NCBI GenBank assembly: GCA_963794065.1
Contig: CAWCDA010000033.1
Coordinates: 123,643-187,642 of the forward strand
Origin: an uncultured Actinomycetes bacterium
Lineage (GTDB): Bacteria; Actinomycetota; UBA4738; HRBIN12
Length of the DNA stretch: 64,000 bases
Direction: 5' to 3'
The translations under genes were made by a program, and so were the position numbers. How positions within the stretch are numbered: the stretch's first letter is position 1; each line of letters opens with the position of its first letter. This document shows, piece by piece, positions 4,647 through 26,452 of the stretch. The notes under the pieces are model-generated. The model searched no databases. It had not been told where the DNA came from and saw nothing but the letters and a program-made list of their open reading frames with translations.

Positions 4647-4769
4647 TGTGGTGGTGATTGGTCTTGGTTGGTTGGTTGTTCTCAGAACTCCCTGACCAGG
4701 CTGTACGCCGTCGTATTTGGGGAGTATCCACAGGTTAAGAGTGAGAGTACCCACAGCTGCAGCGCAGGG
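4647..4769. repeat. unclassified conserved intergenic module, copy 1 of 5 (G/T tract 4647-4677 plus core 4678-4769)
   Basis: Core GTTCTCAGAAC-TCCCTGACC-(20 nt)-TGGGGAGTATCCACAGGTTAAGAG-TGAGAGTACCCACAG-CTGCAGCGCAGG. It aligns without gaps to the copies at 9729, 21860, 24944 and 26362. Confidence 0.85.
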
Positions 4770-4931
4770 CGTCCGTCTTCCCACTGTCGGCAACGCTGAA
4801 CCGTCCGACCGCCGCTCGTCGACGCCCTTGACCGGCGATGCACCCCGTCTTCAGATCGGCGATGGAAAACGAAAGGGGTCACGGCCGAGGACGCGACCTC
4901 TTCCAGTGCGATCCGTCGGCTCTCGCTTCGA

Positions 4932-5462
4932 TCATGATCGAGACATGGTGTAGTCAGCCAGGAGCGTCCAGGTTCGACCGCCGTCGGTGGAGCGCTCCCC
5001 TCGCCAGATGAACGACGACTCGCGGATGTCGTTGAACGACCAACGTCGTGACGAGCCGTCCGGACCTTCGCCCTCCAGCACGATGCGACCGTCAACCGAT
5101 CCGCCGTAGACAACGACCACCGCGGAAGCCTCGGGCAGTATCCACACGACGGTCCACCGCTCTGCCGTCGGATCAAAGAAACGAACCGATGTCCCGACCT
5201 GTCGCTCGCCCCTGCCGTCGCCCACATCGCCTGTCCACACGTCCTGGAGCGCCTGCCCATCCAGGATCCAGCCGAAGGTCACGTGTCCCGGGTAACGCTC
5301 TTTGACGGAGCCGTCCTCCTCGAGATGTACGTACTCGCACTCCCACGTTCCGACGAACCGATCGAAGATCCGAGCCTGATCGTTGCTGGAAGGTTGTCCG
5401 TTGTCAGCGTGGAGCACCTCGCGCAACCTCGTGCCGGTGTCCGTCACGGTCTCTTCTTGCAT
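4932..5462 (-). CDS. hypothetical protein (beta-rich, DUF1579-like guess)
   Basis: ORF 4932..5462(-), coding-like, with no catalytic motif recognised. Confidence 0.45.
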   Translation of the reverse strand: MQEETVTDTGTRLREVLHADNGQPSSNDQARIFDRFVGTWECEYVHLEEDGSVKERYPGHVTFGWILDGQALQDVWTGDVGDGRGERQVGTSVRFFDPTAERWTVVWILPEASAVVVVYGGSVDGRIVLEGEGPDGSSRRWSFNDIRESSFIWRGERSTDGGRTWTLLADYTMSRS

Positions 5463-5472
5463 GACGATCAGC

Positions 5473-6333
5473 TTAGGGAGCGAGACTGCCGTCCGCTGTC
5501 AAGAACGTGCGCAATTCGGTCAGGTCGCCAACGGCGAGTGTGTGCCTGGCCGCTCCCGGTGAAACCCCGAACACGGATCGAAAGCGGGCGCTGAAGTGGC
5601 TGTGGCTCGCGAACCCGAGATCGCTCGCAAGTGCGGCCAGATCTTCTGCGCCATCTGCGAGTCGCTCGATCGCCCCCGCCAAGCGAAGGCGCAAGAGGTA
5701 TCCGGAAACCGAGGTCCCTGTGACGGTACGGAACTGACGAGCCAGGTGGAAGGGCGAACAGTGGACCGCCCGAGCGAGTTCTTCGAGGTGCCATCGTCGT
5801 GCCGGCTCCCCTGCCAACAGCTCGCGGGCCTGTTCGATCCGCACGGGCTGATGCCGGCTCTGGGGGCGATACCCGGATGTTCGCCCCAGGTCGGCGGATA
5901 TCCCCCCGAGCAGACCCAGCGCAACGTCTTCGGCCTCGATAGTGTTCAACACGTTCCGCCGGAGGCCCGCTGCGAGCGCTCGCGCGCGAAGGAACGTCCT
6001 CGGCTCGACCGCGCCCCCGAATGGACCGCCGGGCTTCAACGCGTCTTCGACGATCTCTTGCGGGAACACGAGCACCAGGGAGTGATCACCCAGGTCCCCG
6101 GGGTGCCCGATGCGGTGGTCTCGGTCCGCCTCGAAGATCACGGTGGATGCGACATCGGCGACCGCGATCTGATTCCCGCGGTGAACCTCGAAGACGCCGT
6201 CGAGCGGAAGGATGAACTGGGTGACGCTCGCATGCTCCTCGGCACCCGGTCCGCCACGGCCCGCCGTGCAGCGGACATCCCACACCTCAAGTGTCGGGCT
6301 GTCAAGGAGACAGACGCTTGGTCGCACGCTCAT
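5473..6333 (-). CDS. AraC family transcriptional regulator
   Basis: C-terminal double HTH (HLEELARAVHCSPFHLARQFR ... LGFASHSHFSARFRSVFGVSP). Divergent from the 6466-8901 operon. Confidence 0.85.
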   Translation of the reverse strand: MSVRPSVCLLDSPTLEVWDVRCTAGRGGPGAEEHASVTQFILPLDGVFEVHRGNQIAVADVASTVIFEADRDHRIGHPGDLGDHSLVLVFPQEIVEDALKPGGPFGGAVEPRTFLRARALAAGLRRNVLNTIEAEDVALGLLGGISADLGRTSGYRPQSRHQPVRIEQARELLAGEPARRWHLEELARAVHCSPFHLARQFRTVTGTSVSGYLLRLRLAGAIERLADGAEDLAALASDLGFASHSHFSARFRSVFGVSPGAARHTLAVGDLTELRTFLTADGSLAP

Positions 6334-6465
6334 GCGCTGATGGTAGAGAGCCTTGTCGGTTTGCGCTATCGATCGATCGGGCTCGCTGGATAGGCCTACG
6401 GCCGCGCGTACGGCTTCGAACGCGCGATGGACAACTTGGGCGCGATCTCGTGAGTCTCTCGGGCG

Positions 6466-7584
6466 ATGGAGCGACGTACGCAGATCGAGGCATGGGGCTA
6501 CCCTGTGTCAACGGTGACGCTCCCGATCGAGCCGTTCGAGATGCAACTCCCGCCGGGATGGATCGTGTTCGGTCCCGGGACGCTCCACCGCGTCTCGGAC
6601 GTCGTCGAGCGGATCAGCGTCGGCAGGATCATGCTGGTCGCCGGCGGCTCCGCCGCCGTGATCAGCGAGTCGGTTCGAACCCAACTCGGCGAACGCATCG
6701 TCGCGATGCATGACGACGTCCGTCAACACGTGCCCGAGGAGCTCGCCGACATTGCCGTCCGCCGGGCCCGCGACGCGAACGCCGACGGCGTGATCACTGT
6801 CGGCGGAGGATCGTCGATCGGGCTGGGCAAGGTCGTCGCCGTCTCGCTCGAGATCCCGTTGATCGCGATCCCCACGACGTACGCGGGCTCGGAGATGACG
6901 CCCGTCTATGGGGTCACCGCCAAGCAGAAGGTGACTCGTCGCGATCCCCGCGCGCTTCCGAAAGCCGTCGTCTACGACCCTACGACCACCCTCAGCTTGC
7001 CCCCGCGGGTCACCGCGACGAGCGGGCTGAACGCACTCGCCCATTGCATGGAGGCCATCGTCGGACCTGGCGCGACCCCATTCTCGGCGCTCGTCGCCCG
7101 CGAAGCGGCCGCGCTCTTACCGGACGCCCTGCGCGCGTGCGTCCACGACGGAAGGGATCTCGCGGCGAGGTCGGTCGCGCAGTACTCGGCGTTCCTCGCC
7201 GGCCGGTCGCTCGCTCTGGCGGGCACAGGACTGCAGCACAAGCTCTCGCACATCCTCGGCGGCCGCTACGGCGCGATCCACGCCGAGGTGCACGCGGTAC
7301 TGCTCCCCCACGTTGCCGCGTTCCACGAGGCGGAAGCGCCGGTCAAGATGGCCGCCTTCGCCAGAGTCCTCGAGACCGATCGGGACGCTTCTGACGCCTT
7401 GCGTCACCTAGCGATCGACACGGGAGCGCCATCTTCCCTCGACGAGCTCGGACTGCCGCGCGCGGCGATCGACGTCGCTATGAACGACCTCGGCGACATC
7501 GACGACCCCGCCGCGATCAGGACTCTGCTGGAAAACGCGTTCGAGCCTATGATGCGAACGTCGACCGAAGGAGGCTCGTCATGA
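6466..7584 (+). CDS. maleylacetate reductase-like iron-containing alcohol dehydrogenase
   Basis: GGGSSIGLGK, IPTTYAGSEMT and SGLNALAHCMEA segments. The start may instead be at 6514 or 6541. Confidence 0.75.
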   Translation: MERRTQIEAWGYPVSTVTLPIEPFEMQLPPGWIVFGPGTLHRVSDVVERISVGRIMLVAGGSAAVISESVRTQLGERIVAMHDDVRQHVPEELADIAVRRARDANADGVITVGGGSSIGLGKVVAVSLEIPLIAIPTTYAGSEMTPVYGVTAKQKVTRRDPRALPKAVVYDPTTTLSLPPRVTATSGLNALAHCMEAIVGPGATPFSALVAREAAALLPDALRACVHDGRDLAARSVAQYSAFLAGRSLALAGTGLQHKLSHILGGRYGAIHAEVHAVLLPHVAAFHEAEAPVKMAAFARVLETDRDASDALRHLAIDTGAPSSLDELGLPRAAIDVAMNDLGDIDDPAAIRTLLENAFEPMMRTSTEGGSS

Positions 7585-8396
7585 GCGAGTGGAACGGCAT
7601 GACCTACGAGGCCAAGGACAACATGCTCCGCGTCGTCCGAGAACAGGCCGAGGGCATGTTCGCGCTCGCCGAGCCCAAAGACATCTGGACGATGCCGACG
7701 AACTCGACCGACTGGCAAGTCCGCGACGTGATCGGGCACATCGTCGATGTCACCGAGGGGTACTTCGTGGGCTTCGATGCCGCGCGCGCGGAACAGGAGG
7801 GTCCCGAAAGCCACGGGTTGCCGATCATGGCGAAGCGGCTCGACGAGCACGCGCAGGAGTTCCGCGAGCTCTCTCAACAGGAGATGCTGGATCGCCTGAA
7901 GACCGACTTTCAAAAGATGATGGGGATCTTCGACGGTCTCAGCGAAGAAGACTGGTCGGGTCTCATCGTGAATCACGGGTACATGGGACCGCTCCCGTCG
8001 TTCTTCTACCCCGCGTTCCACCTGATGGACTACGGCGTCCACTCGTGGGACATCCGACAGGCGCTCGGCAAGGAGCACGCCCTGGACGGTGAGACGGCCG
8101 ATCTACTCGTGCCGTTCATGTTCGTGCTCTGGCAGTCGACAGCGCAGACGGACTTTGAGGACACCTTCAAGGTCGGGATCCGGATCCTCTCGGGCGAGAG
8201 CGCGGGCGACACGGTCCTGACCGTCTCGCCCGACGGGATGGGAGCCGAGCCGGGGAGCGTCGACGGCCTGCAGGTCGTGTACGAGTTCGACCCCGCGAGC
8301 TTCGTCCTTACCGCGTTCGGTCGCGCGAACGCCGGCACCTTCCGCGGGAGCCGCGACCTGTCGGACCGGTTCCTCCGCCTGTTCCTGAGGATCTGA
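7581..8396 (+). CDS. DinB / mycothiol-dependent maleylpyruvate-isomerase-type family protein
   Basis: ATGA overlap with the upstream gene. N-terminal DinB-like domain (WQVRDVIGHIVDVTEGYF). Confidence 0.6.
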   Translation: MSEWNGMTYEAKDNMLRVVREQAEGMFALAEPKDIWTMPTNSTDWQVRDVIGHIVDVTEGYFVGFDAARAEQEGPESHGLPIMAKRLDEHAQEFRELSQQEMLDRLKTDFQKMMGIFDGLSEEDWSGLIVNHGYMGPLPSFFYPAFHLMDYGVHSWDIRQALGKEHALDGETADLLVPFMFVLWQSTAQTDFEDTFKVGIRILSGESAGDTVLTVSPDGMGAEPGSVDGLQVVYEFDPASFVLTAFGRANAGTFRGSRDLSDRFLRLFLRI

Positions 8397-8397
8397 C

Positions 8398-8901
8398 ATG
8401 GCGAGCCAAGAGATCGACCTGGAAGCGATCAACGCGGAGCGCGAGCGAATCCGCGCCAAGTACTTGAAGCCGGAGGGTGAACGACCGGCGTCGTCGGTGC
8501 GCGGGATCCATCACACTGCGGTCCTGTGCTCCGACGTCGAGCAGACGATCCGGTTCTACCAAGACCTGCTGGAGTTCCCGCTCACCGACATCTTCGAGAA
8601 CCGCGACTACAAGGGTTCGAACCACTTCTTCTTCGACCTCGGGAACGGGAACCTGCTCGCGTTCTTCGACTTCCCGGGGCTCGACCTGGGGCCGTACGCC
8701 GAGGTGCTCGGCGGCCTGCATCACATGGCGATCTCGGTCGAACCGGAGAACTGGGAGCGACTCAAGGGGAAGCTCGACGACGCAGGGATCCCCTACCTGC
8801 ACGAGAGCGGGACGTCGATCTACTTCTCGGATCCCGACGGGACGCGCGTGGAGCTGATCTCTGATCCGCTCGGTTCGATGTACGGGACAAAGGTTCTGTA
8901 G
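8398..8901 (+). CDS. VOC (glyoxalase/bleomycin-resistance/dioxygenase) family protein
   Basis: GIHHTAVLCSD ... LHHMAISVE ... DPDGTRVEL, the typical VOC metal-ligand pattern. Starts 1 nt after the upstream stop. Confidence 0.8.
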   Translation: MASQEIDLEAINAERERIRAKYLKPEGERPASSVRGIHHTAVLCSDVEQTIRFYQDLLEFPLTDIFENRDYKGSNHFFFDLGNGNLLAFFDFPGLDLGPYAEVLGGLHHMAISVEPENWERLKGKLDDAGIPYLHESGTSIYFSDPDGTRVELISDPLGSMYGTKVL

Positions 8902-9567
8902 CTACCAGCCGCGCGAACGCCAGGTCTCGACGTACGGGCGTTCGCGCCCGAGCGTCGTGTCTATCCCGTGCCCGGGGCAAACACGCGTCTCGTCCGAGAA
9001 CTCGGTGAACAGCCGACCGATGCTGCCCATTACCTCGGTGAACCGCTCGACGTCGGCGGTCTTCCCGGGTCCCGCGGGGAACAAGGTGTCACCCGAGAAG
9101 AGGAAGCCGTCGGTCGTGTAGCACACGCTCCCGGGCGTGTGTCCGGGTGTGTGCAACGCGGTCACCGTCACGTCGCCGACCTTCACGACGTCGCCCTCGC
9201 CGATCGGGGCGAACGGCACCGGCGGCGGGTCTTCGGGATGCGCATAGACGGGAGCACCCAGCGCCTCGACGAGCGCCGGCAGTGCCGCGACATGGTCGAA
9301 GTGATTGTGGGTCTGGATGATGCCGGTCACCTTCAGGCCCTCGACGAGCGAGAGGATCCTGTCGGGTTCGTCGGCCCCATCGACGATCAGCGCCTCGTCA
9401 CCGGCGATCAGCGCGTACACGTTGTTCTCGTAGGAGCCGACCGCCACTTTGCGCACGCGGAGCGAGCCCGCGGCAGGATAGTCGTGCACCGGACCGCCGA
9501 CCGTTACAACGCCGAACTCGGCGGTCTCCGGTGGCCGCGGGGTCGCCGACGCATCGCCCATCACCAT
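8902..9567 (-). CDS. MBL-fold metallo-hydrolase
   Basis: HxHxDH motif (QTHNHFDHV), then HTPGHTPGS. ORF 8902..9672, with the start trimmed to ATG 9567. Its stop abuts the VOC stop (TAGCTA). Confidence 0.75.
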   Translation of the reverse strand: MVMGDASATPRPPETAEFGVVTVGGPVHDYPAAGSLRVRKVAVGSYENNVYALIAGDEALIVDGADEPDRILSLVEGLKVTGIIQTHNHFDHVAALPALVEALGAPVYAHPEDPPPVPFAPIGEGDVVKVGDVTVTALHTPGHTPGSVCYTTDGFLFSGDTLFPAGPGKTADVERFTEVMGSIGRLFTEFSDETRVCPGHGIDTTLGRERPYVETWRSRGW

Positions 9568-9707
9568 CGAGCCTACAAGGCAGTATCGAGCGATCGTGGA
9601 AACCCAGCCGGGCACTGTCGGCTTGCGGGATCTCACTACCATCACCGTCTCCGAACATCGGCTGAGCTCCAACGGTGAGACATTCGACTTTCGGGGGCCT
9701 CAGTTTC

Positions 9708-9818
9708 GAGAACACCCCTGAGTGGGGTGTTCTCAAGACTCCCTGACCACGCGGTTTGCGGCCTGTCTTGCGGAGTACCCACAGGTTAAGAGGGGTAGTA
9801 CCCACCCCTGCAGCGCAG
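9708..9818. repeat. unclassified conserved intergenic module, copy 2 of 5 (hairpin 9708-9734 plus core 9729-9818)
   Basis: Core GTTCTCAAGAC-TCCCTGACC-...-GCGGAGTACCCACAGGTTAAGAG-GGGTAGTACCCACCC-CTGCAGCGCAG. The G/T tract is replaced by a perfect 11-bp inverted repeat, GAGAACACCCC-TGAGT-GGGGTGTTCTC. Confidence 0.85.
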
Positions 9819-9821
9819 ACA

Positions 9822-11255
9822 TCAAGGAGACGAGCTCAGCTGGACGTCGCTCGTTTCAGCGCCGACGGCAACGGGCGCGCTGTGGCATCGCTTCCACTTC
9901 AGGCCACTGCCGCAGGGGCAGGGATCGTTACGGCCCCGCTTCGCATCCTCCGAGGCGTAGATAGCCATCAGGTCCGCTGGGGCCCTCCCGGCTCGAAGGA
10001 ACGCACTCATCTGTTGCATCGCCGGCGTCACGTGGTGGAAGAAGTCCTTGTAGCTCGGACACAGGTAGTGCTGGCCCGCCTCGCCGTACGGCGAGGTCGC
10101 GAAGCGGTCCTTCGGGCACCCACCGTTGCAGGCGAAGCGCACATCACAGTCCAGACAGAACTGGGTGAGCGTGTCGCGCTTGTCCTGGCCGAACTTCCGC
10201 TGCTGGGGCGAGACGATCAGCTCGAGCATGTGCTTGTCCTTGATGTTGCCCAGCAGGTAGTCGGGCTCAACGAAGTGGTCACAGGAGTACAGATCGCCCG
10301 TGTGCTCGATCGCGAGCTGCAGCCCACAGGTCTCGGCGTGCACGCACATCCCCCCGGGCTCGCCGTAGAAGTTGGTTAGCGCGGTGTCGAACATCTGGAC
10401 GTAGACGGTTCCGATGTCGCGACGGACCCATTCCTCGAACACGTCGATCATGAACCGCCCGTACTGCTCGGGACCGATCGACCGATGCGTCACGAGATCG
10501 CCCTCCTGCTTATACAGCGGCCTGCCCTTCACACCGTCGCCCCAACCAGAGTCGGTGATCTCGAAGTTCTCCTCGGTGGCGCGTTCGATGATCGGGATGA
10601 ACTGGATGAAGGTGGCACCGAGCTCATCGCGGAAGAACGTGTAGACCTCGCGACCGTGATCGCCGTTGACCGCGTGGATCGTGGTGAGCACGTTCCAGTC
10701 GACCTCGTGGCGCTTGAGGACGTCGAGGCCCTTCATCACCCTGTCGAAGGTGGGCTTGCCGCCCTTGTCGACACGGTAGGCGTCATGCATCTCACGCGGC
10801 CCGTCGATCGAGATCCCGACCAGGAACTCGTGCTCCTTGAGAAACTCTCCCCACTCGTCGTCCAGGAGCGTCCCGTTGGTCTGCATCGTGTTGAGGACGT
10901 GTTGGCCCGGCTGCGCATAGCGCTGCTCGAGCTCGATCGATCGGCGGAAGAAGTCCAGACCCATCATCGTCGGCTCGCCGCCCTGCCAGGCCACGACGAC
11001 CTCAGGGGCGCGGGCATGCGACTCCATCAATTGGCGGATGTAGGTCTCGTGGATCTCCTCCGCCATCCGGAACCGACTGCCCGGGTACAGCATCTCCTTG
11101 GACAAGAAGAAGCAGTACTCGCAGTCGAGGTTGCAGATCGCTCCCGTGGGCTTGGCCATCAGGTGGAAGGCCGGGGGGGCGCCGGGCATCGTCAGCATCG
11201 GGCTCGCGGACTCGGGGTCCACCGTCGAGTCCTTGGGCGGACCAAGTTCACTCAT
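9822..11255 (-). CDS. radical SAM/SPASM maturase, anaerobic-sulfatase-maturase-like, with C-terminal SEC-C motif
   Basis: CNLDCEYC radical SAM motif. Cys-rich SPASM region (CDHF..., CLDCDVRFACNGGCPKD). C-terminal RNDPCPCGSGLKWKRCH. Start set to ATG 11255; the longer ORF to 11678 reads through a foreign fragment. Confidence 0.8.
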   Translation of the reverse strand: MSELGPPKDSTVDPESASPMLTMPGAPPAFHLMAKPTGAICNLDCEYCFFLSKEMLYPGSRFRMAEEIHETYIRQLMESHARAPEVVVAWQGGEPTMMGLDFFRRSIELEQRYAQPGQHVLNTMQTNGTLLDDEWGEFLKEHEFLVGISIDGPREMHDAYRVDKGGKPTFDRVMKGLDVLKRHEVDWNVLTTIHAVNGDHGREVYTFFRDELGATFIQFIPIIERATEENFEITDSGWGDGVKGRPLYKQEGDLVTHRSIGPEQYGRFMIDVFEEWVRRDIGTVYVQMFDTALTNFYGEPGGMCVHAETCGLQLAIEHTGDLYSCDHFVEPDYLLGNIKDKHMLELIVSPQQRKFGQDKRDTLTQFCLDCDVRFACNGGCPKDRFATSPYGEAGQHYLCPSYKDFFHHVTPAMQQMSAFLRAGRAPADLMAIYASEDAKRGRNDPCPCGSGLKWKRCHSAPVAVGAETSDVQLSSSP

Positions 11256-11359
11256 ACCGGGTGAGATCCCCTCCTGGGCGACAACACGGCGTCGCTGATG
11301 GCCTCGACTGGCGCTGGTGGTCGCGGTCGTTCTGGTCAGCATAGGCGACGGCGAAATCC

Positions 11360-12165: not shown

Positions 12166-12185
12166 GCAGAGGTCGACAAGCGGAA

Positions 12186-12210: not shown

Positions 12211-12235
12211 TCAGCTCGATCACCGGGTATCTCAG

Positions 12236-19737: not shown

Positions 19738-20018
19738 CCGCTCGCCGCCCGAGAAGGCGGCAGAACGTCATCGGCTCGTTTCACGCTGACGTGACCGCAC
19801 CTCGGACACCGTGCTCCGAAACTCGGCGCCGGGACGGGCTGACCGTCGCGACAATGCACTACCCAGCGAGCGCCGGAGGGAGCCAGGTAGTCGCGAACCT
19901 CGTACCTGACCTGCCAAGTGCACAGGCAGTCGTCACAGACGAACGGATGGCGCTCGGCGCGGACGCTGATACGAACTTCGTCGAAGCTGCGGCCGAGGTC
20001 TGTCGCTTCGATCGTCAT
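19734..20018 (-). CDS. small Cys-rich (zinc-ribbon-like) protein
   Basis: MTIEATDL...FVCDDCLC...ARCPRCGH. ATGA overlaps at both ends (with the tetR stop at 20015 and the ClC start at 19737). Confidence 0.5.
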   Translation of the reverse strand: MTIEATDLGRSFDEVRISVRAERHPFVCDDCLCTWQVRYEVRDYLAPSGARWVVHCRDGQPVPAPSFGARCPRCGHVSVKRADDVLPPSRAASG

Positions 20019-20617
20019 GACCCGCCTATCCCGTCCAAGATCGCATCGAGGGCTTTGGCGACGTTGGCCCACCGGAAGCCGGATGGATCCAGTCCGGCGT
20101 GAAGCAGCAGCCCATCTCCGAGTGCGAGCAGGATCGCCGCCAACGCGTTCGCCGGTATCGATGCCAACTCGCCCGATGCGATGCTTGCCTCGATCCAACG
20201 CTTGAGCACCGCGCGTCTGGCTCTCACCACGGCGACCCATTTCTCCCGAACGGCGATGCTGGCCGACATCTCCGACCAGAGGTCTGCGCGGATCTGGAGT
20301 CGAGCTGGGTCGTCGCCGCGCTCGATCATCACGCGAGTGAATCGCCGCAGACGCTCAACGCCGCCCAGATCGGCTCGCTCGAGGTCCGCCATGAACGCAT
20401 CTATCTCTGCTGCCTCGTCCTCGAGAAGCCCGAGCAAGAGATCCTGCTTCGATTCGAAGTAGAGGTAGAAGGCTCCCTTGCTGACGCCGGCCTCGGCGCA
20501 GACTTCATCGACGGTGAGCGACTGGAATCCGCGATCCGCGACGCAGCGCCACGCAGCATCGATCAACTGCTGGCGACGAGCGACCCTGGTTTCAGCTGCG
20601 AGGCGAGGCATGAGCAT
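20015..20617 (-). CDS. TetR/AcrR family transcriptional regulator
   Basis: N-terminal HTH (GFQSLTVDEVCAEAGVSKGAFYLYFESKQDLL). Confidence 0.85.
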   Translation of the reverse strand: MLMPRLAAETRVARRQQLIDAAWRCVADRGFQSLTVDEVCAEAGVSKGAFYLYFESKQDLLLGLLEDEAAEIDAFMADLERADLGGVERLRRFTRVMIERGDDPARLQIRADLWSEMSASIAVREKWVAVVRARRAVLKRWIEASIASGELASIPANALAAILLALGDGLLLHAGLDPSGFRWANVAKALDAILDGIGGS

Positions 20618-20654
20618 CCTTCCGCCCGACGTCCGGAACTGCTCCTAGGCTATG

Positions 20655-20668
20655 ACTGACTGGTCAGT
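20655..20668. promoter_or_regulatory. candidate TetR operator palindrome
   Basis: ACTGAC-TG-GTCAGT, 38-51 nt upstream of the tetR start. Confidence 0.4.
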
Positions 20669-20794
20669 TTGGCAAATGGATTCGATCACCGGTGCTGGTG
20701 GTGTTCGGTGATCGCCTGAAAATCACGAGCCATGGCCGTTGCAACCCATCGTTCTTCCAGCGAGGCACCAGCTGCACACGCAGATTCGTAGTAG

Positions 20795-21157
<363 letters not shown>

Positions 21158-21196
21158 GCGTCTTATGAGACCAGGCCTTGAGCCAGGGAGGCACCG

Positions 21197-21607
21197 ATGA
21201 GCGAGATCTTCGTACGGCACGAGCAAGGCGATCGCTTCACGATCAGCGTTCGCGGCCATGACATCACCATCGATCAACCCCTCGAGGACGGCGGGGACGA
21301 CATGGGCCCGACGCCCAGCGAACTCTTCGTGGCCTCCCTCGCCGGATGCGTCGGCTACTTCGCGGAACGATTCCTGGTTCGCCATGACATCGCGACCGAG
21401 GGACTCGAGGTGCACGCGACCTACGAGTACGCCGACGATGCCCCATCCAGGGTGGCGTCGATCGACGTGCAACTCACCATCCCCGCCGGCGTCCCCGAGT
21501 CGAAGATCCCCACCTTGATGCGCGTGGTGGATCGCTGCACCGTCCACAATTCCCTGCGCCAGGCCCCGCAGGTTCGGATCTCGACGAAACTCCCCTCGTC
21601 TGTCTAA
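21197..21607 (+). CDS. OsmC family peroxiredoxin-like protein
   Basis: GPTPSELFVASLAGCVGYF ... VVDRCTVHNSL, the two conserved OsmC Cys segments. Confidence 0.85.
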   Translation: MSEIFVRHEQGDRFTISVRGHDITIDQPLEDGGDDMGPTPSELFVASLAGCVGYFAERFLVRHDIATEGLEVHATYEYADDAPSRVASIDVQLTIPAGVPESKIPTLMRVVDRCTVHNSLRQAPQVRISTKLPSSV

Positions 21608-21623
21608 GACCTCTGAGGACGAC

Positions 21624-21788
21624 GTGTGTAGAGCAGTGACGTGTCGGAGATGCGGCCTGCCGACCTGGAAAGGGTGCGGCGCCCATGTGGAGCAAGTACT
21701 CCGCAACGTTCCGCCCGCCGAACGATGCCCCGGTCACGCCGAGGAAATGAGGAAGTTCAGGCGCAGGTCCTGGTTCTCTCGCTCATGA
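21624..21788 (+). CDS. possible small Cys-rich protein (not in the ORF track)
   Basis: Hand-translated frame: VCRAVTCRRCGLPTWKGCGAHVEQVLRNVPPAERCPGHAEEMRKFRRRSWFSRS. GTG 21624 is preceded by GAGGA. It resembles small actinobacterial CxxC...GCG.HV proteins from memory only. Confidence 0.35.
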   Translation: MCRAVTCRRCGLPTWKGCGAHVEQVLRNVPPAERCPGHAEEMRKFRRRSWFSRS

Positions 21789-21821
21789 ACTTGGGTACAC
21801 GTGCCCCGGCGACTGACGCTC

Positions 21822-21949
21822 GGTAGTAGTCGGTCGGTCGGTCGGTCGGTGGGTGGGCTGTTCTCAGAACTCTCTCACCACACGGTTTCCGACACTTCTG
21901 GGGAACCTCCCACAGGTTAGGGGGGGTACCTCCCACAGCGGGTCAGAGG
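21822..21949. repeat. unclassified conserved intergenic module, copy 3 of 5 ((TCGG)n/G-T tract 21822-21859 plus core 21860-21949)
   Basis: Core GTTCTCAGAAC-TCTCTCACC-...-GGGGAACCTCCCACAGGTTAGGGG-GGGTACCTCCCACAG-CGGGTCAGAGG. Both internal repeats carry the same variant, ACCTCCCACAG. Confidence 0.85.
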
Positions 21950-22056
21950 CCCTTCTTCGCCACCGAAGGATCTCCTGGCCGGAAGGGAGAGGTGCCGAGC
22001 CACTCCGTCCATGTTCGCCGCCGTCCGTAGTCGAATGGTCGTCTCACGCGTCTTAC

Positions 22057-22578
22057 ATGATGATGCGAGAGACATTGACCGCCGATGCCGCAACCTCGCC
22101 GGGCCTCGAGACCCTCTATGAGCAACACGCTCCGAGCGCCTTGCGGTTCGCGTACTTCCTGAGCGGTGACCAGGAGACCGCCAGGGACCTCGTCCAGGAT
22201 GCGTTCGTCCAGGTCGCCGGTCGTTTCCGCTACCTACGGCAACCCGACGGGTTCGATGCGTACCTGCGCCGCACGATCGTGAACCTCAACGCATCAAGGC
22301 TGCGACGGCTCAAGGTGGAGCGATCGTCCCTGGCCCGTGAGGCTGCCTACCCGGCGGTTGGCGTCCCCGAGCGGGACCCTGCTGTCAGCGAGGAATTGTG
22401 GCAGGCGATCCTCGATCTCCCGCCACGACAGCGGGCGGCGATCGTCCTGCGCTTCTACGAAGACCTGAGCGAGGTGCAGGCTGCCGACATCCTCCGTTGT
22501 TCGGTCAAGGCCCTGAATCAGCTCGTGGTGAGAGCGATGAAGACCCTCCGCACCCAGATCGGCGAGGAGCCATCATGA
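22057..22578 (+). CDS. ECF-type (SigE-like) RNA polymerase sigma factor
   Basis: Region 2 (ETARDLVQDAFVQVAGRF) and region 4 (LPPRQRAAIVLRFYEDLSEVQAADILRCSVKAL). Start trimmed to ATG 22057. Confidence 0.85.
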   Translation: MMMRETLTADAATSPGLETLYEQHAPSALRFAYFLSGDQETARDLVQDAFVQVAGRFRYLRQPDGFDAYLRRTIVNLNASRLRRLKVERSSLAREAAYPAVGVPERDPAVSEELWQAILDLPPRQRAAIVLRFYEDLSEVQAADILRCSVKALNQLVVRAMKTLRTQIGEEPS

Positions 22579-23855
22579 ACGACCTCGAATCCAGGCTCCG
22601 CGGCGCGTTCCGCGAGCACGAAAGCGACGCGCCCGCGGTCGACCTCTCAGACGCACGCCACGTCGCAGGCCGGACGCGGCGCCGCCAGATCCTGAACGCA
22701 GCCGGCGCAGGCGTCGGTGCCCTCGCCATCGTGGTCGCGCTCACCACCGGGCTCGGCGGCCTGCTTCGCGCGGATCGCGTTCCTGCGGATCAGCCGCCGG
22801 CGGCGCCGCTGTCCGGCCCCCTCGCGTACGACCTCCGGGGTCACACCCACGTCGCCGGCCTGGACGGGTCGAACCCCGTCGCGCTCGACGACGTCGTCGA
22901 GCTCGACGACGAGTGCCCGGGCCACGTCTACACGAGTTTCTTGCCGTCGTGGTCGCCGGACGGGCGATACCTCGCCTTCCGCCGCTCCGCCGAGTGCGGT
23001 GACCTTACGCGCCGCGACGTCGTGATCGCCGACCTGCAGGGCAACGTCGTCGGGGTCTTCCCCGCCTCGAAGCTCGGATACGAGATCGGGTGGTCGCCCG
23101 ATTCCACGCGCGTCGCGGTGTGGGACGAGTACGGCTCTCGCGAGGGCACGTACACGATCGGCATCCACGGGATCGACGGCAGTGAGGCGCAGTTCGAGAT
23201 GCCTCGCGGATGGGCGCCGTCGTGGTCTGGCGGCCCGATCTGGACGGCGGACGGCGACTCGGTGATCGTGAGCGAGCTCGAGGTTCCCCTCGACGGCGGG
23301 ACCCCACGGGAGATCGCATTCCACGGAACGTTCATGGATCCATCCGGAGGGTGGTGGCAGGGTGCGCTCGCCTACTCGCCCGACGGCTCGCAGATGGCGT
23401 ACGGCACGCCCGAAGGGCTGATGGTCGCGCGGGCCGACGGCTCCGACCCCCGAGAGGTGTCCGCGGACGGCGCGCACACCGCGGCGTGGTCTCCGACCGG
23501 CGAGCTGATCGCGGTCGCCTCGGCCACCCCCGGCACCGATCAATTCACGAAGCGCGGGGACGGCGGGAACCACGAGCAGGCCCCGGACCGACTTCGGATC
23601 GTGGACGTGGCGACCGGGTCGACAACGCTGCTTGCCGAAGGCGGGACGTGGTACGTGGTCATCGGGTTCTCGCCCGACGGCGACCGCGTCCTGTATGGGG
23701 ATCACCGACCGGCGGTGGCGGGGCAACCCGACGGGGCCTGGGTCGACTCGATCTGGAGCGTCCGGATCGACGGCTCCGACGCCCGCCAGATCGCAGTGGG
23801 CACGTACACCGGGGACTTGCGCCCGGCCGGACCGGAGGGAGGGAACCAACCGTGA
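22575..23855 (+). CDS. membrane-anchored TolB-like (PD40/WD40-like beta-propeller) protein, candidate anti-sigma partner
   Basis: ATGA overlap with the sigma gene. One TM helix (GAGVGALAIVVALTTGLGGLL), then repeated W/YSPDG-type propeller blades. Confidence 0.6.
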   Translation: MNDLESRLRGAFREHESDAPAVDLSDARHVAGRTRRRQILNAAGAGVGALAIVVALTTGLGGLLRADRVPADQPPAAPLSGPLAYDLRGHTHVAGLDGSNPVALDDVVELDDECPGHVYTSFLPSWSPDGRYLAFRRSAECGDLTRRDVVIADLQGNVVGVFPASKLGYEIGWSPDSTRVAVWDEYGSREGTYTIGIHGIDGSEAQFEMPRGWAPSWSGGPIWTADGDSVIVSELEVPLDGGTPREIAFHGTFMDPSGGWWQGALAYSPDGSQMAYGTPEGLMVARADGSDPREVSADGAHTAAWSPTGELIAVASATPGTDQFTKRGDGGNHEQAPDRLRIVDVATGSTTLLAEGGTWYVVIGFSPDGDRVLYGDHRPAVAGQPDGAWVDSIWSVRIDGSDARQIAVGTYTGDLRPAGPEGGNQP

Positions 23856-24544
23856 GATCGCTGGTGCGGCTGTCGTTCTTCGTGCTCGTCTTGGCGGTGG
23901 GCGCGTGTCGCGGTGACGACGGCACCGATCCGCCGTCAACTACCGGGGCATCGAGCGGCGGCATCGAGGTCCTCGGCCCCGATGCAGACGTGAACGGGAT
24001 GAGCACCGCCGATCTGTTGGGGACGTACGCCGTCGGCGTCGTGGAGACTCCCCACGACGACTCGTCCGTGGCCGATCCGGCGAAGTGCGACATGGGCTTG
24101 TCCACCGAAGACGTCTACTTCGCCCCGACGCCCGGCGAGCCGGGGGATCTGTCGACGACGTGCACCATGTCCGCGGACCAGACGCTGCTGGTCGTGCCGA
24201 CGAGCGCGTTCTGCATCGACGCCCCCGAATCCGGCGGCACGGCTGACACGGCCTGCCTGGATAGCCTGTGGGATCTCACGAGTTCGTCCGTGACGATCGA
24301 CGGGGTCGAGGTCGAGGGCCTCGACGCATACGAGGTCGACTCGGAGGTCATCGACGTGACGCTGCCGGAGAGGAACGTCTTCGAGGACCACGAGGTGCCG
24401 GCCGGGGCAAGCCGCACCATCGCTCGGGGCCAGGTCGTCCTCGTACAGGGGCTCGCGCCCGGGGGTCACACCGTCGTGCTGGGGTTCGACTTCGGCAACG
24501 GCGAGTTCGCAGGTTCGTTGACGATCGACCTCACCGTCGAGTAG
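23852..24544 (+). CDS. lipoprotein, function unknown
   Basis: GTGA overlap with the upstream gene. Signal peptide with lipobox (FFVLVLAVGAC). Confidence 0.6.
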   Translation: MRSLVRLSFFVLVLAVGACRGDDGTDPPSTTGASSGGIEVLGPDADVNGMSTADLLGTYAVGVVETPHDDSSVADPAKCDMGLSTEDVYFAPTPGEPGDLSTTCTMSADQTLLVVPTSAFCIDAPESGGTADTACLDSLWDLTSSSVTIDGVEVEGLDAYEVDSEVIDVTLPERNVFEDHEVPAGASRTIARGQVVLVQGLAPGGHTVVLGFDFGNGEFAGSLTIDLTVE

Positions 24545-24726
24545 CCCGACCGAAAGGCGAGCACCCTTCGAACCCCGGGACTCGAGCCCGCGCGGCGATC
24601 CGCCACGGGCAGGTCACTCCCGATGATCGACTGACGGCCGGGGGAAGAAGGGTTGCGCCCAGCCGGCGATCCGTACGAGGTAACGGAACGACTCCGATGA
24701 GCGGCGCCCGTCCGCCGTCGCCGGTC

Positions 24727-24899
24727 ACCCTCGCGAAGCCGGCTGGCTCGCCGCGGTTCCGGAGCGTCATGCGCGTGCCGTCCGGGTCGTCCTCCCAGGT
24801 GTAGGTCGTCTCCATCGGGAACGGGGCCGTCGCTCGCGCGCTGCACGAGCCGCTCCCCGGCACGAGTTCCGTCACCTCGTACGTATAGGCGAGCTGCCA
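24727..24899 (-). pseudogene. C-terminal remnant of an SRPBCC family gene
   Basis: WQLAYTYEVTELVPG / ERLVQRASDGP (other frame) / FPMETTYTWEDDPDGTRMTLRNRGEPAGFARV. About 90 N-terminal codons are missing and there are two internal frame changes. The break lies 16 nt from the G/T tract of module copy 4. Confidence 0.4.
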
Positions 24900-24914
24900 T
24901 TGTGGGAGGAGGAC

Positions 24915-25035
24915 TTTAGTTGGTTGGTGGTGGTTAGTGGGGTGTTCTCAGAACCTAATGACCTGGGCGAACTGGCTCTTATGAGAGGAGTGCCCACAGG
25001 TTAAAGAGGGGAGGAGCCACACCTGCGGTGCAAGG
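24915..25035. repeat. unclassified conserved intergenic module, copy 4 of 5 (G/T tract 24915-24943 plus core 24944-25035), most diverged
   Basis: Core GTTCTCAGAAC-CTAATGACC-...-GAGGAGTGCCCACAGGTTAAAGAG-GGGAGGAGCCACAC-CTGCGGTGCAAGG. Same internal spacing as the other copies. Confidence 0.75.
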
Positions 25036-25091
25036 GTTCACGCGTGGGGGTTATATCAGGCCACCTGTATGCCCCGCCGCGGTCAGTCGCG

Positions 25092-26240
25092 TCAAGGTTC
25101 GGTTGCCGCCTCGGGGACGAGCGGGCGCGACACGACCGTGGCCGTCAGCGGACTCGACGGCGACTGCAGCGCGAGCCGGGTACCGATCTCCGCCGGCTCG
25201 TCGAGCAGCGCGTCTCCGGCGTGCCGTTCCAGCGCGTACGAGTACCCGGCTTGCCACACGACGCCGATCTGCTCGCCGTCGCCGGGCGTCTTGACCGGCC
25301 AGAACGTCTCGAGTTCGGGCGGGTCCTCGCCATCAATCGTGAACGCGACCGCGTGACGCCTCGGGGTCGTGCCGTCCGCGATCCGACGAAGCGCGTCCTG
25401 CCCGATGAACGGCGCGTCTTTGTCGAGATCGACCGTGTACTCGAGTCCCACCTCGAACGGGTTGATCTCCAGGTTGTCGCCGTAGCGGATGTCGGTCACG
25501 CCGCGCTCCCACGCCCGTTCCCCGATGACGGGCGTCACCAGCACTCCGACCGGATCCGAAGCACGCCGAACCTCCCGCCACACACGCCTCGCAGGCTCCA
25601 CATCGGGAGCGAACACCTCGTATCCGAACTCGCCGCTCCACCCGGTGCGAGAGACGAGCACCTCCACGCCTGCGATCGACGTCCAATCCCATGCGTACCG
25701 CGGCATCGATGCAACGCTCGGCGCGAGCGCCTTCATCACATCCAGAGCGCGCGGTCCCTGCAGCGCGAGCGGTGACACGGGTGCCTCGTGGACCTCGACC
25801 TCGTGCTCGGTGTGCAGTGCGACGGCTCGAGCCCATAGCGGGAAGTCCGCCGGTCCGTGACAGATCCACACGCGCTCGTCGCTCAACCGCAGCACGAGCG
25901 CCTCGCAGATGATTACCCCGTTTTCGTCACAGGCCGTCGCGTGCCTGCACCGACCCACCGTCTGTCCGGCGATGTCGCGCGTGAGTAGGTAATCGGCGAA
26001 CGCGACGGCGTCGGGCCCGGTCAATTCGAGCGCGCGTTCACACCCGACATCCCACAGCGTGACGCGTTCGAGGAGAGCCTCGTACTCGACGCGGCGGTCG
26101 CGGCCGTAGCTCGCGGGCAGCCACATCCGGTTGTACGGCCAAGCCATGATGGCGCCCTCCGCCATCGCGAACTCCAGGTAGGGCGACTCGCGAACATAGG
26201 CCGGATACCGGTGAAGCCGGGGCTCCTCATCGGAGGACAT
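25092..26240 (-). CDS. aminomethyltransferase (GcvT/glycine-cleavage T protein) family enzyme
   Basis: GcvT-family core (LWDVGCERALELTGPDA ... VSRTGWSGEFGYEVF). Confidence 0.8.
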   Translation of the reverse strand: MSSDEEPRLHRYPAYVRESPYLEFAMAEGAIMAWPYNRMWLPASYGRDRRVEYEALLERVTLWDVGCERALELTGPDAVAFADYLLTRDIAGQTVGRCRHATACDENGVIICEALVLRLSDERVWICHGPADFPLWARAVALHTEHEVEVHEAPVSPLALQGPRALDVMKALAPSVASMPRYAWDWTSIAGVEVLVSRTGWSGEFGYEVFAPDVEPARRVWREVRRASDPVGVLVTPVIGERAWERGVTDIRYGDNLEINPFEVGLEYTVDLDKDAPFIGQDALRRIADGTTPRRHAVAFTIDGEDPPELETFWPVKTPGDGEQIGVVWQAGYSYALERHAGDALLDEPAEIGTRLALQSPSSPLTATVVSRPLVPEAATEP

Positions 26241-26299
26241 CGTCGAACCCTACTTGGATCGGAGAAAGGGGTCATCGGTTGCTGACAGTAGGCAATTCC

Positions 26300-26452
26300 G
26301 TTAGTTCGTTCGTGGGTGGGTGAGTTGGGTGTGTGTGTGGTGGTGGGTTGGTTAGTGGGGTGTTCTCAGAACTCCCTGACCACACGGTTTGCAGCCCTTC
26401 TTGGGGAGTACCCACAGGTTAAGAGGGATAGTACCCACAGCAGGTCAGAGAC
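26300..26452. repeat. unclassified conserved intergenic module, copy 5 of 5 (G/T tract 26300-26361 plus core 26362-26452)
   Basis: Core GTTCTCAGAAC-TCCCTGACC-...-TGGGGAGTACCCACAGGTTAAGAG-GGATAGTACCCACAG-CAGGTCAGAGA. Confidence 0.85.

Follow-up and report, generated by a model that had tools for sequence, protein, structure and literature searches.

The five copies of a conserved non-coding module in the window (the whole stretch of 64,000 nucleotides analysed here) form one oriented array that begins at the 3' end of a tRNA-Tyr gene (28767-28849), and each module marks where a gene cassette ends on the side away from the tRNA; these cassettes vary in presence and order between near-identical strains. 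We consider the modules to be probably the left ends of DDE transposons that target tRNA-Tyr, and of the cargo cassettes that such transposons left behind; the transposon family is most likely an undescribed one in uncultured soil actinobacteria. The palindrome and the two repeats of each module are better read as a terminal inverted repeat followed by putative subterminal binding sites, and the module as a whole would be a functional left end.

The cores of the five copies start at 4678, 9729, 21860, 24944 and 26362, all on the plus strand, where the initial annotation had placed them; the distances it gave, 49 nt from the core start to the start of the first CCCACAG-type repeat (5/5 copies) and 23 nt from there to the second, were also reproduced. 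An nhmmer profile built from the five copies recovers exactly those five in 64 kb (E 1e-24 to 5e-31) and no sixth, the next match having E > 4, and therefore the 35-kb respiratory half holds no copy, as had been stated. Searching for GTTCTCAGAACTCCCTGACC with up to three mismatches gave 4 sites in the window vs 0 in shuffles, and a CCCACAGGTTAAGAG pattern search gave all five copies and one weak off-target. The described ~92-nt unit keeps its fixed spacing but not its length: the conserved unit is longer (~100 nt), starting 7 nt earlier with GTGGGGT and often extending about 15-20 nt beyond the second repeat. It is non-coding, as had been proposed, given that single-base length variants exist and copy 4 has an in-frame stop. 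With 84 copies as input, RNAalifold predicts no structure for either strand, in agreement with the earlier failure to find a conserved helix, and the ACTCCC/GGGAGT pairing once offered as a candidate fails when more copies are inspected. The module matches no curated family, Rfam, a plasmid collection and a phage collection all being without a match; the Rfam search returned tRNA matches only, and an E-value scan of 24800-26600 returned only chance-level matches.

Related loci extend this picture. We found 233 module matches, 213 of them distinct, in more than 170 loci of uncultured soil Actinomycetota. Spacing could be measured in 192 of the 213, with a search pattern that itself permitted a 20-nt spread: palindrome to first repeat is 49 nt in 155, 48 nt in 10 and 50 nt in 17, and first to second repeat is 23 nt in 178, so that the fixed spacing also holds outside the window. 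Orientation is never mixed within one locus. The visible array starts abut the 3' end of tRNA-Tyr. Across loci there are 19 distinct junctions with tRNA-Tyr upstream, its relative orientation being the same in each; in four loci tRNA-Thr/Met lies past the far end of the array. Exact-pattern matches number only about 1-5 per genome, usually on one contig and beside tRNA-Tyr. One module, in locus L007, sits beside a phage-type integrase, so that some copies may lie outside tRNA-Tyr arrays. Among 76 copies with both neighbours called, 28 lie between convergent genes and 10 between divergent genes. The modules are not placed like promoters.

Outward from tRNA-Tyr, the window reads as follows (cargo lines carry no strand):

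28767-28849, minus strand: tRNA-Tyr (GTA); Rfam tRNA 52.4 bits, ARAGORN
28672-28766, minus strand: C/A-rich, G-poor junction tract of cassette 1, directly after the tRNA (TAACGACGAACCACC...); from the sequence
26456-28671: cassette 1 cargo; Pfam, blastn against strain contigs
27339-28556, minus strand: Pyr_redox_2 oxidoreductase of cassette 1; Pfam
within 26316-27191, plus strand: unknown ORF of cassette 1
26355-26455, plus strand: module copy 5, closing cassette 1, outer tip GTGGGGTGTTCTCAGAAC at 26355; profile, consensus
26300-26354, plus strand: GT-rich tract, CA-rich if read on the array strand, separating copy 5 from the GcvT-like cassette
25038-26299: cassette 2 cargo; Pfam, strain comparison
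25092-26240, minus strand: GcvT-like aminomethyltransferase of cassette 2; Pfam
24937-25037, plus strand: module copy 4, closing cassette 2; profile, strain comparison
21954-24936: cassette 3 cargo, including unknown sequence; Pfam, blastn
about 22090-22578, plus strand: ECF sigma factor of cassette 3; Pfam
22398-23855, plus strand: PD40 beta-propeller protein of cassette 3; Pfam
24917-24936: GT tract of cassette 3
21853-21953, plus strand: module copy 3, ACCT flavour in both direct repeats
21821-21852: GT tract of module copy 3
9823-21820: cassette 4 (12 kb), with OsmC, CsoR-like, TetR, CLC channel, response regulator, histidine kinase, LuxR, SRPBCC, cupin, GNAT and radical SAM/SPASM genes; Pfam, strain comparison
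9722-9822, plus strand: module copy 2, core GTTCTCAAGAC
9679-9721, plus strand: right-end remnant of the element
4773-9678: cassette 5 cargo, with metallo-beta-lactamase fold, glyoxalase, MDMPI/DinB, Fe-ADH, AraC and DUF1579; Pfam
4671-4772, plus strand: module copy 1, the last and most eroded
4648-4670: GT tract of module copy 1

The tRNA-Tyr 3' end, ...TCCTCCTCCCAC, is the anchor or target of the array, which runs leftwards on the minus strand, and it is abutted by different cassettes in the window, in L066/L067 and in L068. By blastn, the cassette 1 cargo is missing from strain contigs L066-L069 and the entire 3-kb cassette 3 block from L067; cassette 4 is common to the window, L067 and L075, the last having one extra module-bearing 3.5-kb block within it. 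Cassette 2 is 98-99% identical between strains and its flanks 92-96%, and copy 4, which closes it, has four different neighbours in four strains, each beginning right after ...CCCCAC. On its other side, the tract at 26300-26354 recurs in every strain, regardless of the upstream neighbour. The GcvT-like gene has its own leaderless-type TAGGGT box. Strain contigs that share a 100% identical GcvT-like protein differ in which cassettes they carry and in how these are ordered (U|G|T|D, U|T|G|D and U|G|OsmC, against U|P|G|PD40|OsmC in the window), and every such junction comes directly after ...CCCCAC or after the tRNA's ...CCCAC, the only sequence that the tRNA-Tyr end and the module tip have in common. 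The synteny break is always at the outer tip of the module, ...GAGAACACCCCAC|. Ends of alignments of at least 500 nt between loci concentrate at module positions 0-9, and 73/73 of the ends there have no colinear continuation; this breakpoint set includes independent pairs at 98.8% and 99.8% identity. Copy 1 has TTGGTTG in place of GGGG at its tip, and L075 shows no further module for at least 6 kb past it. The annotated window genes (Pfam) include no recombinase.

The module tip recurs, as a 25-29-nt inverted repeat, at the right end of a mobile element that is missing from the window. About 15% of the modules have GGGGTGTTCTCAGAACTGAGGCCCCTGAC 2-60 nt beyond them: the tip sequence in inverted form, at the head of a conserved ~175-nt element. 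In related loci the same inverted repeat is common to the module tip and to a right end adjoining a DDE-protein gene, which places an inverted terminal sequence beside a predicted transposase gene as expected of a DDE transposon end; the window keeps only a 29-nt relic of it (9690-9718), separated by a 3-nt spacer (9719-9721) from copy 2, with which it makes a "complete junction". At 9/19 distinct junctions, a gap of 3-15 nt separates the right end from the tRNA-Tyr 3' end, and the orientation never differs. The right end has none of the direct repeats of the left end, and most cassettes are without it. Complete junctions consist of two 25-29-nt inverted arms around a 5-nt spacer and fold as single strands into a bulged hairpin with a variable loop; z is -3.0 for the copy-2 junction, for which the L075 strain contig supplied the folded sequence, and ranges from -4.8 to -8.1 in another five. 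Identical 4-nt flanks border 4/13 right-end-to-module units (CCAA, CTCA, CCAC and CCGA), and the flanks of a fifth agree at 3/4 positions.

The junction tracts have a period of 4. Composed of 41% C and 20% G, they show a lag-4 autocorrelation of 0.53 vs 0.32 in shuffles (z = 37), and the first 3 nt after CCCAC are identical in 39% of within-locus pairs vs 9.5% between loci. The G-poor tract, which the initial annotation mentioned beside a possible minus-strand small RNA, is not an RNA feature; it is a tetranucleotide repeat that starts at the junction, in register with the insertion point.

Beyond the ~175-nt right end, on the opposite strand, lies a gene with a Y(2)R(3)E(6)K motif that is predicted, from conserved residues and modelled fold, to encode an unannotated DDE transposase. 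D162, D309 and E481 are invariant in 40 homologues. The model (pLDDT 84) has as its best PDB match the piggyBac transposase (E 1e-3, probability 0.97), with weaker matches to retroviral integrase cores; please note that the structural match is modest (TM about 0.3). In its last ~55 residues only, the protein weakly matches the C-terminal part of two models, DDE_Tnp_1_6 (Pfam, 23 bits vs a curated cut-off of 25) and IS1182 (NCBIfam NF033551, 39 vs 270), and it reaches the cut-off of neither family. A second protein, p306 (model pLDDT 91.6), matches Cre, XerH, XerA, IntI and lambda Int with probability 1.0. Across 40 homologues, however, its catalytic Tyr position varies (Y/F/H/N/E/D/A) and the HxxR His is replaced; p306 has the fold of a tyrosine recombinase but not the full catalytic R-K-H-R-H/W-Y set, and we infer that it may be a DNA-binding target selector or an end-binding partner of the transposase. 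The element also encodes a Cas4-like PD-(D/E)XK nuclease and a small AlpA/Xis-like HTH protein. Pfam and NCBIfam searches with the five conserved proteins gave PDDEXK_1/Cas4 and the weak DDE_Tnp_1_6 match only.

The right end closes the gene set in L196, L197 and L198, where the tRNA-Tyr 3' end is 3 nt away; L014 has the same junction with a truncated transposase, and L202 and L203 have the same gene layout adjoining YajQ. Genes and right end are both present in L196-198, L202 and L203, with no module within 4-13 kb, in L196, L198 and L203 counted to the left of the genes. L135 supplies the left end with the genes, in the order module, cargo, HTH, small protein, Cas4-like nuclease, p306 and p568 and in the orientation expected from the model, its contig stopping inside p568. 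We link the module to the left end because of the shared inverted repeat, the arrangement in L135 and the flank matches; the loci examined include no single one with both ends of an autonomous copy and its transposase.

On this evidence, the left end would consist of the terminal inverted repeat GGGGTGTTCTCAGAACTCCCTGACC and about 75 nt of subterminal sequence holding the two direct repeats. An autonomous copy, of which the window has none, would carry from the tRNA outwards the conserved ~175-nt right end, a ~570-aa DDE transposase, the ~306-aa tyrosine-recombinase-fold protein, the Cas4-like nuclease, a small protein, the small HTH protein, cargo and, by extension, the module. Such elements would insert in one orientation directly 3' of tRNA-Tyr, or of a resident module tip, at ...CCCA|CNNN, and repeated insertion at one point would move older units further from the tRNA. 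These units would then lose their transposition genes and right ends, with cargo and a co-oriented left-end module staying behind, and the outcome would be an integron-like cassette row that differs between strains. The G-poor tracts would derive from a 4-bp target duplication that grew into tetranucleotide repeats, either because insertion and excision recurred and left footprints or because of slippage.

The same arrays could be produced by site-specific recombination. The modules would then be the sites at which a tyrosine-recombinase cassette system attaches or recombines, either a system like an integron or integrative elements accreted in tandem; cassettes would leave as circles carrying module, spacer and inverted core, and re-integrate conservatively at ...CCCAC-NNN of the tRNA end or another module. 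The two inverted arms, 5-nt spacer and bulged single-strand hairpin of complete junctions would suit such a system, as would the tyrosine-recombinase-fold and AlpA/Xis-like proteins, direct repeats set at a constant distance from the core as arm-type sites are, the position at a tRNA 3' end and the permuted cassette order. We nevertheless regard it as rather unlikely. The Tyr and the HxxR His that p306 would need for catalysis are not conserved, and the inverted repeat adjoins the gene of a putative DDE enzyme whose triad is invariant; the matching 4-nt flanks, like the period of 4 in the tracts, agree with duplication of the target and not with a conservative exchange. When about 1 Mb of array sequence was scanned for motifs, no IntI-type or other active integrase came up, bar the phage-type one of L007, whose homologues target tRNA-Pro. 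Nor is the module an attC-type imperfect palindrome: R''(RYYYAAC)-L''...L'-R'(GTTRRRY) is not found, GTTCTCA/TCAGAAC do not fit, and palindromic structure appears only in the composite of module and right end.

A transcriptional role, in which the module would be a promoter or operator with a minus-strand leader, or a small RNA, and the G-poor tract a Rho-loading insulator, agrees with the C-rich composition of the tract, with the TAACCT hexamer invariant across the five window copies and with the two window copies that precede minus-strand genes. It strikes us as quite improbable as the main explanation: copies 1 and 3 have no downstream gene on the minus strand, divergent-gene contexts are depleted, and the synteny breaks and the repeat shared with the transposase-linked end would be left unexplained. 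The minus-strand small RNA that the initial annotation kept as an option likewise has neither an Rfam match nor a conserved structure behind it; the initial annotation's non-coding, DNA-level, MITE-like or recombination-like reading, without covarying RNA, was right. The module may still have a secondary insulating or promoter role. That these are repeats of a selfish or structural kind (REP, BIME or MITE-like) spread through the genome, tolerated at 3' intergenic positions and co-oriented by replication direction, is hardly plausible at all. Short, conserved and non-coding, and more frequent between convergent than divergent genes, the modules do resemble such repeats; they are few per genome, however, absent from the other 35 kb of the window and placed exactly at cassette presence/absence boundaries, with no RAYT or other linked gene found save the DDE element. 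REP/RAYT or dispersed MITE identity was rejected on the few copies at one locus, the unmixed orientation and the single terminal repeat per module.

Taken as transposon ends, the modules recall several known systems. Like Tn7-like elements, these would insert right behind a conserved gene, here 3' of tRNA-Tyr, with site and orientation both fixed, and would pair a nuclease, here Cas4-like, with a DDE enzyme; asymmetric ends with subterminal repeats, and repeated one-site insertion giving variable islands of defence and accessory cargo, are further likenesses (PMC10293859; PMC11014353). TnsF of Tn6022, an inactivated tyrosine-recombinase domain serving as target selector of a DDE transposon, may be a counterpart of p306 (PMC10293859). 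The five conserved proteins, in contrast, include no TnsA, TnsB, TnsC or TniQ/TnsD homologue by Pfam and NCBIfam and no ATPase was seen; the structure search of the DDE protein gives piggyBac, not MuA or TnsB, the enzyme thus appearing IS4/IS1182/piggyBac-like, and the target is a tRNA 3' end. Tn7 makes a 5-bp target duplication, vs the apparent 4 bp here, and piggyBac a 4-bp one. The Y(2)R(3)E(6)K signature, and a DDE triad carried by an RNase-H-like fold, would be common to the element and to IS1182, IS4 and piggyBac; the element differs as a multi-gene, cargo-carrying, site-specific element with ends of about 100 and 175 nt.

Integrons and CALINs are similar in their co-oriented arrays of unrelated accessory-gene cassettes, each ending in a ~100-nt conserved site, in strain-variable order and content, in the usual absence of an enzyme in cis and in a complete junction whose fold is a bulged, variable-loop hairpin. 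Here, however, cassettes are bounded on the loop side of the hairpin and not in the R' box, and the tRNA-anchored cassettes hold 1-12 genes with their own promoters in both orientations. A 2016 survey did not find complete integrons in Actinobacteria (PMC4889954). Mobile insertion cassettes, MITEs and solo ends are comparable as non-autonomous units that keep transposon ends and passenger genes and have no transposase, but here mostly one end is recognisable, in a single oriented array and not dispersed. The DDE proteins are labelled "hypothetical" where named, including in RefSeq on Streptomyces clavuligerus pSCL3.

All five copies of the module, i.e., a unit of about 100 nt made of a palindromic core and two CCCACAG-type repeats, were confirmed where the initial annotation had placed them, the copies starting near 4671, 9722, 21853, 24937, and 26355 on the plus strand; a 20-nt piece of the core matches four sites in the window and none in shuffles. 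A profile built from the five copies recovers just these five in the 64 kb (E values from 1e-24 to 5e-31), and the 49-nt and 23-nt spacings, the common orientation, the variable middle of about 20 nt with its fixed length, and the absence of modules from the other 35 kb of the window were all correctly described. The window has a G+C content of 67.5% and a gene content of actinobacterial type. We used GTTCTCARRAC-N(29-49)-CCACAGGTTA as the search pattern for relatives. Among species-representative genomes, 65 stretches match, mostly MAGs labelled Actinomycetota or Actinomycetes; the gap is exactly 39 nt in nearly all matches so labelled, and the few matches from other phyla, with odd gap lengths, are chance. 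More than 120 stretches with the pattern were found in JGI metagenome contigs. Arrays of this kind occur on long-read contigs such as ERZ25039487:contig_35371 (493 kb) and ERZ25039490:contig_38887 (407 kb), and on jgi Ga0506529_0000481 (98 kb). An nhmmer search of related loci gave 233 modules, 213 of them distinct, and mixed directions within one locus were never seen among the loci compared. The spacing from palindrome to first repeat is 49 nt in 155 of the 192 measurable modules, and that from first to second repeat is 23 nt in 178 of them.

The module consensus reads GTGGGGTGTTCTCAGAACtCcCTGACC, then about 20 variable nt, then GAgt.CCCACAGGTTAAGaggGGtAgtaCCCACAgcaGgtcaGaggcc. The four bases preceding each CCCACAG of the direct repeats (CCCACAGG) come in two flavours, AGTA-like and ACCT, and the flavour is nearly always the same in both repeats of a module (at least 29 ACCT/ACCT pairs vs about two mixed ones). 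Judged from the repeats themselves, this matching would fit one protein species reading both of them; common descent of the ACCT modules could be its source as well. One module in a related locus (L022, 1335-1440) carries three CCCACAGGTTA-type repeats, not two.

The GcvT-like protein encoded at 25092-26240 (minus strand) is 100% identical on eight contigs, six of which were examined. The gene orders in the strain contigs (L066-L069) and in the window are as follows.

Gene order of the array in strain contigs and in the window (slashes separate blocks)
L066: YajQ - tRNA-Tyr / GcvT / TMEM175 / DUF4386...
L068 and L069: ...tRNA-Tyr / TMEM175 / GcvT / DUF4386...
L067: ...tRNA-Tyr / GcvT / OsmC...
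Window: ...tRNA-Tyr / Pyr_redox + unknown / GcvT / ECF-sigma/PD40 / OsmC...

Every block is closed by a module, in the strain contigs and in the window. On the array strand, i.e., the minus strand of the window, each block junction falls directly after ...GAGAACACCCCAC, and the array-start junction falls directly after the ...TCCTCCTCCCAC of the tRNA. Between contigs, identity is 98-99% for the GcvT block and 92-96% for the flanking core genes. Of 440 alignment ends near a module (alignments of at least 500 nt), 77 fall at module positions 0-9 and 28 more in the adjacent bin; the ends abutting the module tip are true synteny breaks in 73 of 73 cases, among them independent pairs at 98.8% and 99.8% identity. 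At 19 distinct junctions tRNA-Tyr lies upstream of the array in the same relative orientation, and in four loci tRNA-Thr and tRNA-Met lie beyond its far end. It follows from the strain orders, the breakpoints at the tips, and the tRNA-Tyr anchor that the five copies bound the cassettes of a single oriented array, which runs from tRNA-Tyr (28767-28849) leftwards to copy 1, a cassette being cargo genes closed by one module. No further module was found for 6 kb beyond copy 1 in the strain contig L075.

The same contig holds at 13134-16633 an extra 3.5-kb block, absent from the window, between the radical SAM/SPASM/SEC-C gene and the GNAT gene; it comprises ydhR, AAA_16, two unknown genes, and one module, and it is not bounded by a module tip at each end. 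In the window, within 11440-11760, the start of the radical SAM/SPASM/SEC-C gene is probably near 11537, not at 11678. One MAG (L016, ~5280-5330) has an array cut down to a single module, and its tRNA-Tyr gene, beside YajQ, is truncated behind the anticodon arm.

Several identities for the module itself were considered. The initial annotation could match it to no family, and for Rfam this stands: at the gathering score, the whole window and 15 loci return tRNA only (in the window, tRNA-Tyr at 28768-28849, minus strand), and a permissive E-value scan of 24800-26600, around copies 4 and 5, gives chance-level matches only. A structured RNA was rejected. The CTGACC/GGTCAG and ACTCCC/GGGAGT pairings are broken in many copies, the latter having already been doubted as a general feature, and RNAalifold on 84 copies yields no consensus structure on either strand, in line with the earlier statement that no helix is backed by covariation. 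The contexts are wrong for a promoter or 5' leader, i.e., 28 convergent, 38 tandem, and 10 divergent among the 76 copies with both neighbours called, and sigma-70 and ECF hexamers, compared by hand, gave no consistent fit; copy 1 has the 3' end of a Na+/H+ exchanger gene on one side and that of a DUF1579 gene on the other. Phage attP was dismissed because the module pattern and the tyrosine integrase of locus L007 are both absent from viral contigs; the module is also absent from the phage collection and the plasmid collection searched. In the literature, the literal module sequence matched only primers, and keyword searches found no description of such an element. The L007 integrase was likewise rejected as the cognate enzyme, since its 59-66% homologues adjoin tRNA-Pro, without modules. 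This phage-type integrase (L007/L072, 143-1285) has a module 770 nt away and a contig end 142 nt upstream; the module there may lie outside any tRNA-Tyr array.

At about 15% of the junctions, GGGGTGTTCTCAGAACTGAGGCCCCTGAC, an inverted copy of the module tip with five extra bases, is found 2-60 nt after the tip; in the window, the inverted tip is at 9690-9718, adjoining copy 2. GGGGTGTTCTCAGAACTGAGGCCCCTGAC heads a conserved element of about 175 nt, hereafter the right end, which contains a second box of the terminal repeat TCTCAGAACTCC and a hairpin of 14-15 bp, AAGGGCGTCATCGG/CCGATGACGCCCTT, whose pairing is kept through changes on both sides. The direct repeats of the module belong to the left end only. 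The inverted core was also considered as a coding C-terminus and rejected: the open stretch of the ...GVLRCQGPQF frame is only 10-140 codons long, and its upstream part is not conserved. Behind the right end comes the 3' end of a gene on the opposite strand; this gene encodes p568, which has a Y(2)R(3)E(6)K motif, and is often a mere stub (L043, L063, L014). The hairpin is GC-rich and located just after the stop codon of this gene (e.g., L196 7741-7772, L043, L090, L143); it may be a terminator or a protein site.

Full-length p568 homologues are 555-585 aa long, are named "hypothetical" if at all, and have no precomputed Pfam domain. p568 matches Pfam DDE_Tnp_1_6 and the IS1182 family weakly, with neither match reaching the family cut-off. 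D162, D309 (in DxGYS), and E481 are invariant in 40 homologues. The best solved-structure match of the AlphaFold model (pLDDT 84) is a modest one to piggyBac transposase (E 1e-3, probability 0.97), followed by weak matches to retroviral integrase cores. PDB sequence-profile searches with p568 and p306, a protein of about 306 aa encoded beside it, gave nothing, and the PDB matches of both come from predicted structures only. On the motifs, the invariant acidic residues, and this modest structural match, p568 is a predicted DDE transposase.

A common gene block is found in L196, L197, L198, L202, and L203, encoding a small HTH protein (weak AlpA match), a ~155-aa protein, a Cas4-like PD-(D/E)XK nuclease, p306, and p568. 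In the first three loci, the block is followed by the right end, 3 nt, the tRNA-Tyr 3' end, and YajQ; L202 and L203 have the same gene layout beside YajQ, the right-end repeat being found in place in L203. The cargo left of the block includes either an AAA_15/21 ATPase or a type I restriction-modification system accompanied by a HEPN protein. The defence-type cargo occupies L196 1-3541, L198 1158-8287, and L203 928-2859. A search for terminal inverted repeats within these autonomous loci gave no left partner, and an intact element with both ends was found in none of the loci examined, in stretches of 8-21 kb. Homologues of p306 and p568 are on equal-sized contigs in 15 cases, suggesting that the two co-occur, and they are adjacent, both annotated as hypothetical, on plasmid pSCL3 of the cultured Streptomyces clavuligerus (NZ_CP086232.1, 255367-258095). 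About 200 nt downstream of the plasmid pair (7866-7909 of locus L201) there is a 21+21-nt palindrome, AACTCTCAGCACGGAC/GT/GTCCGTACTGAGAGTT, that resembles an end-to-end junction, but with a different end sequence.

The p306 model (pLDDT 91.6) matches Cre, XerH, XerA, IntI, and lambda Int with a probability of 1.0. Because its alignment shows neither a conserved tyrosine where the nucleophile would be nor the HxxR histidine, p306 is more likely a DNA-binding partner than a recombinase. In Tn6022, the inactivated tyrosine-recombinase domain of TnsF selects the target of a DDE transposon (PMC10293859). That conservative (site-specific) recombination builds the array instead, p306 having the fold for it without a conserved tyrosine or the HxxR histidine, we consider improbable.

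The module is linked to this element by the terminal inverted repeat common to its tip and the right end. In L135, a module, two cargo genes, HTH, p154, Cas4-like, p306, and p568 follow one another in the expected orientation, and the contig stops inside p568. The right end is absent from most cassettes; among 13 right-end-to-next-module units, four have identical 4-nt flanks (CCAA, CTCA, CCAC, and CCGA), and those of a fifth agree at 3/4 positions. Within one genome, the bases after ...CCCAC resemble each other at every junction, and they differ between genomes sharing a cassette, e.g., TAAC three times in the window and GACC three times in L068; 39% of within-locus pairs have the same first 3 nt, vs 9.5% of pairs between loci. 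Such likeness would be the expected product of repeated insertion with duplication at one fixed point.

The tracts that follow ...CCCAC are G-poor (C 41%, A 28%, G 20%, T 10%) and tetranucleotide in period, with a lag-4 identity of 0.53 vs 0.32 in shuffles (z = 37; lag 8, z = 22), and they start in register at the junction (CGAC 43, CAAC 29, CACC 17, TCAC 12, GAAC 9). As far as their sequence tells, they may descend from a 4-bp target duplication, and they could have grown by duplications retained after excision or by slippage seeded by the duplication. New units would insert between ...CCCAC and the tract, and for this reason the same tract would precede the GcvT cassette whatever is upstream.

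We rate the locus as probably a site-specific DDE transposon with cargo cassettes. The autonomous element would insert in one orientation at CCCA|CNNN just 3' of tRNA-Tyr; position and orientation are observed, and the chemistry is what we infer. The far end of the element would be the module; its tip, ending once more in ...CCCCA|C, could take the next insertion, and right ends are indeed seen abutting module tips. Older units would be pushed away from the tRNA, losing genes and right end (stubs of both are seen), so that cargo and a co-oriented module would stay, and leftover cassettes may move again in composites formed with an active copy next to them. The window itself contains the passive remains, i.e., five left-end modules and one right-end relic. 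The locus behaves like Tn7-type attachment-site islands, yet does not show what defines them; it also looks like an integron array, but the defining parts are missing, with no attC palindrome and no IntI. We only tentatively propose, and regard as somewhat unlikely, that the locus is a self-renewing gene-capture platform, driven by a heteromeric machine in which an IS4/piggyBac-like DDE enzyme would act together with a Cas4-like nuclease and a target selector of inactivated tyrosine-recombinase fold. Each inserted unit would then supply a fresh docking site, its left-end module; cassettes would be added, excised, and reshuffled singly beside tRNA-Tyr, integron-like but by transposition chemistry, and past insertion/excision cycles could be counted from the record left in the tetranucleotide tracts.

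If true, an abundant uncultured soil clade of Actinomycetota, a phylum in which complete integrons were not found, would keep a dedicated cassette array, variable among strains, at a single tRNA gene. Its builder would be a transposon family left as "hypothetical protein" in the annotations seen, i.e., a new IS/Tn family that has relatives on plasmids of Streptomyces and Rhodococcus, and a second, independent DDE transposon with an inactivated tyrosine-recombinase-type protein. It would also offer a site- and orientation-specific insertion system for high-GC Gram-positives, testable as a genetic tool, and the module would serve as a simple sequence marker of accessory-gene hotspots in actinobacterial metagenomes.

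Some observations concern the window genes and the cargo. The DUF2252 gene is split in the window, with a C-terminal piece at 962-1225 and an N-terminal piece at 1639-2229 (both minus strand), and is probably a pseudogene; the L075 copy is intact (509 aa). Upstream of the GcvT-like gene (26240-26300, minus strand), a TAGGGT box lies 6 nt before the ATG, with an ATGACC box another 18 nt upstream; together they look like a leaderless-type promoter, and cassettes may thus come with promoters of their own. An ECF sigma factor paired with a PD40/Tricorn-like beta-propeller protein recurs as cargo (window 22090-23855, L072 2121-4504, and L008), the pairs reading outward from the module.
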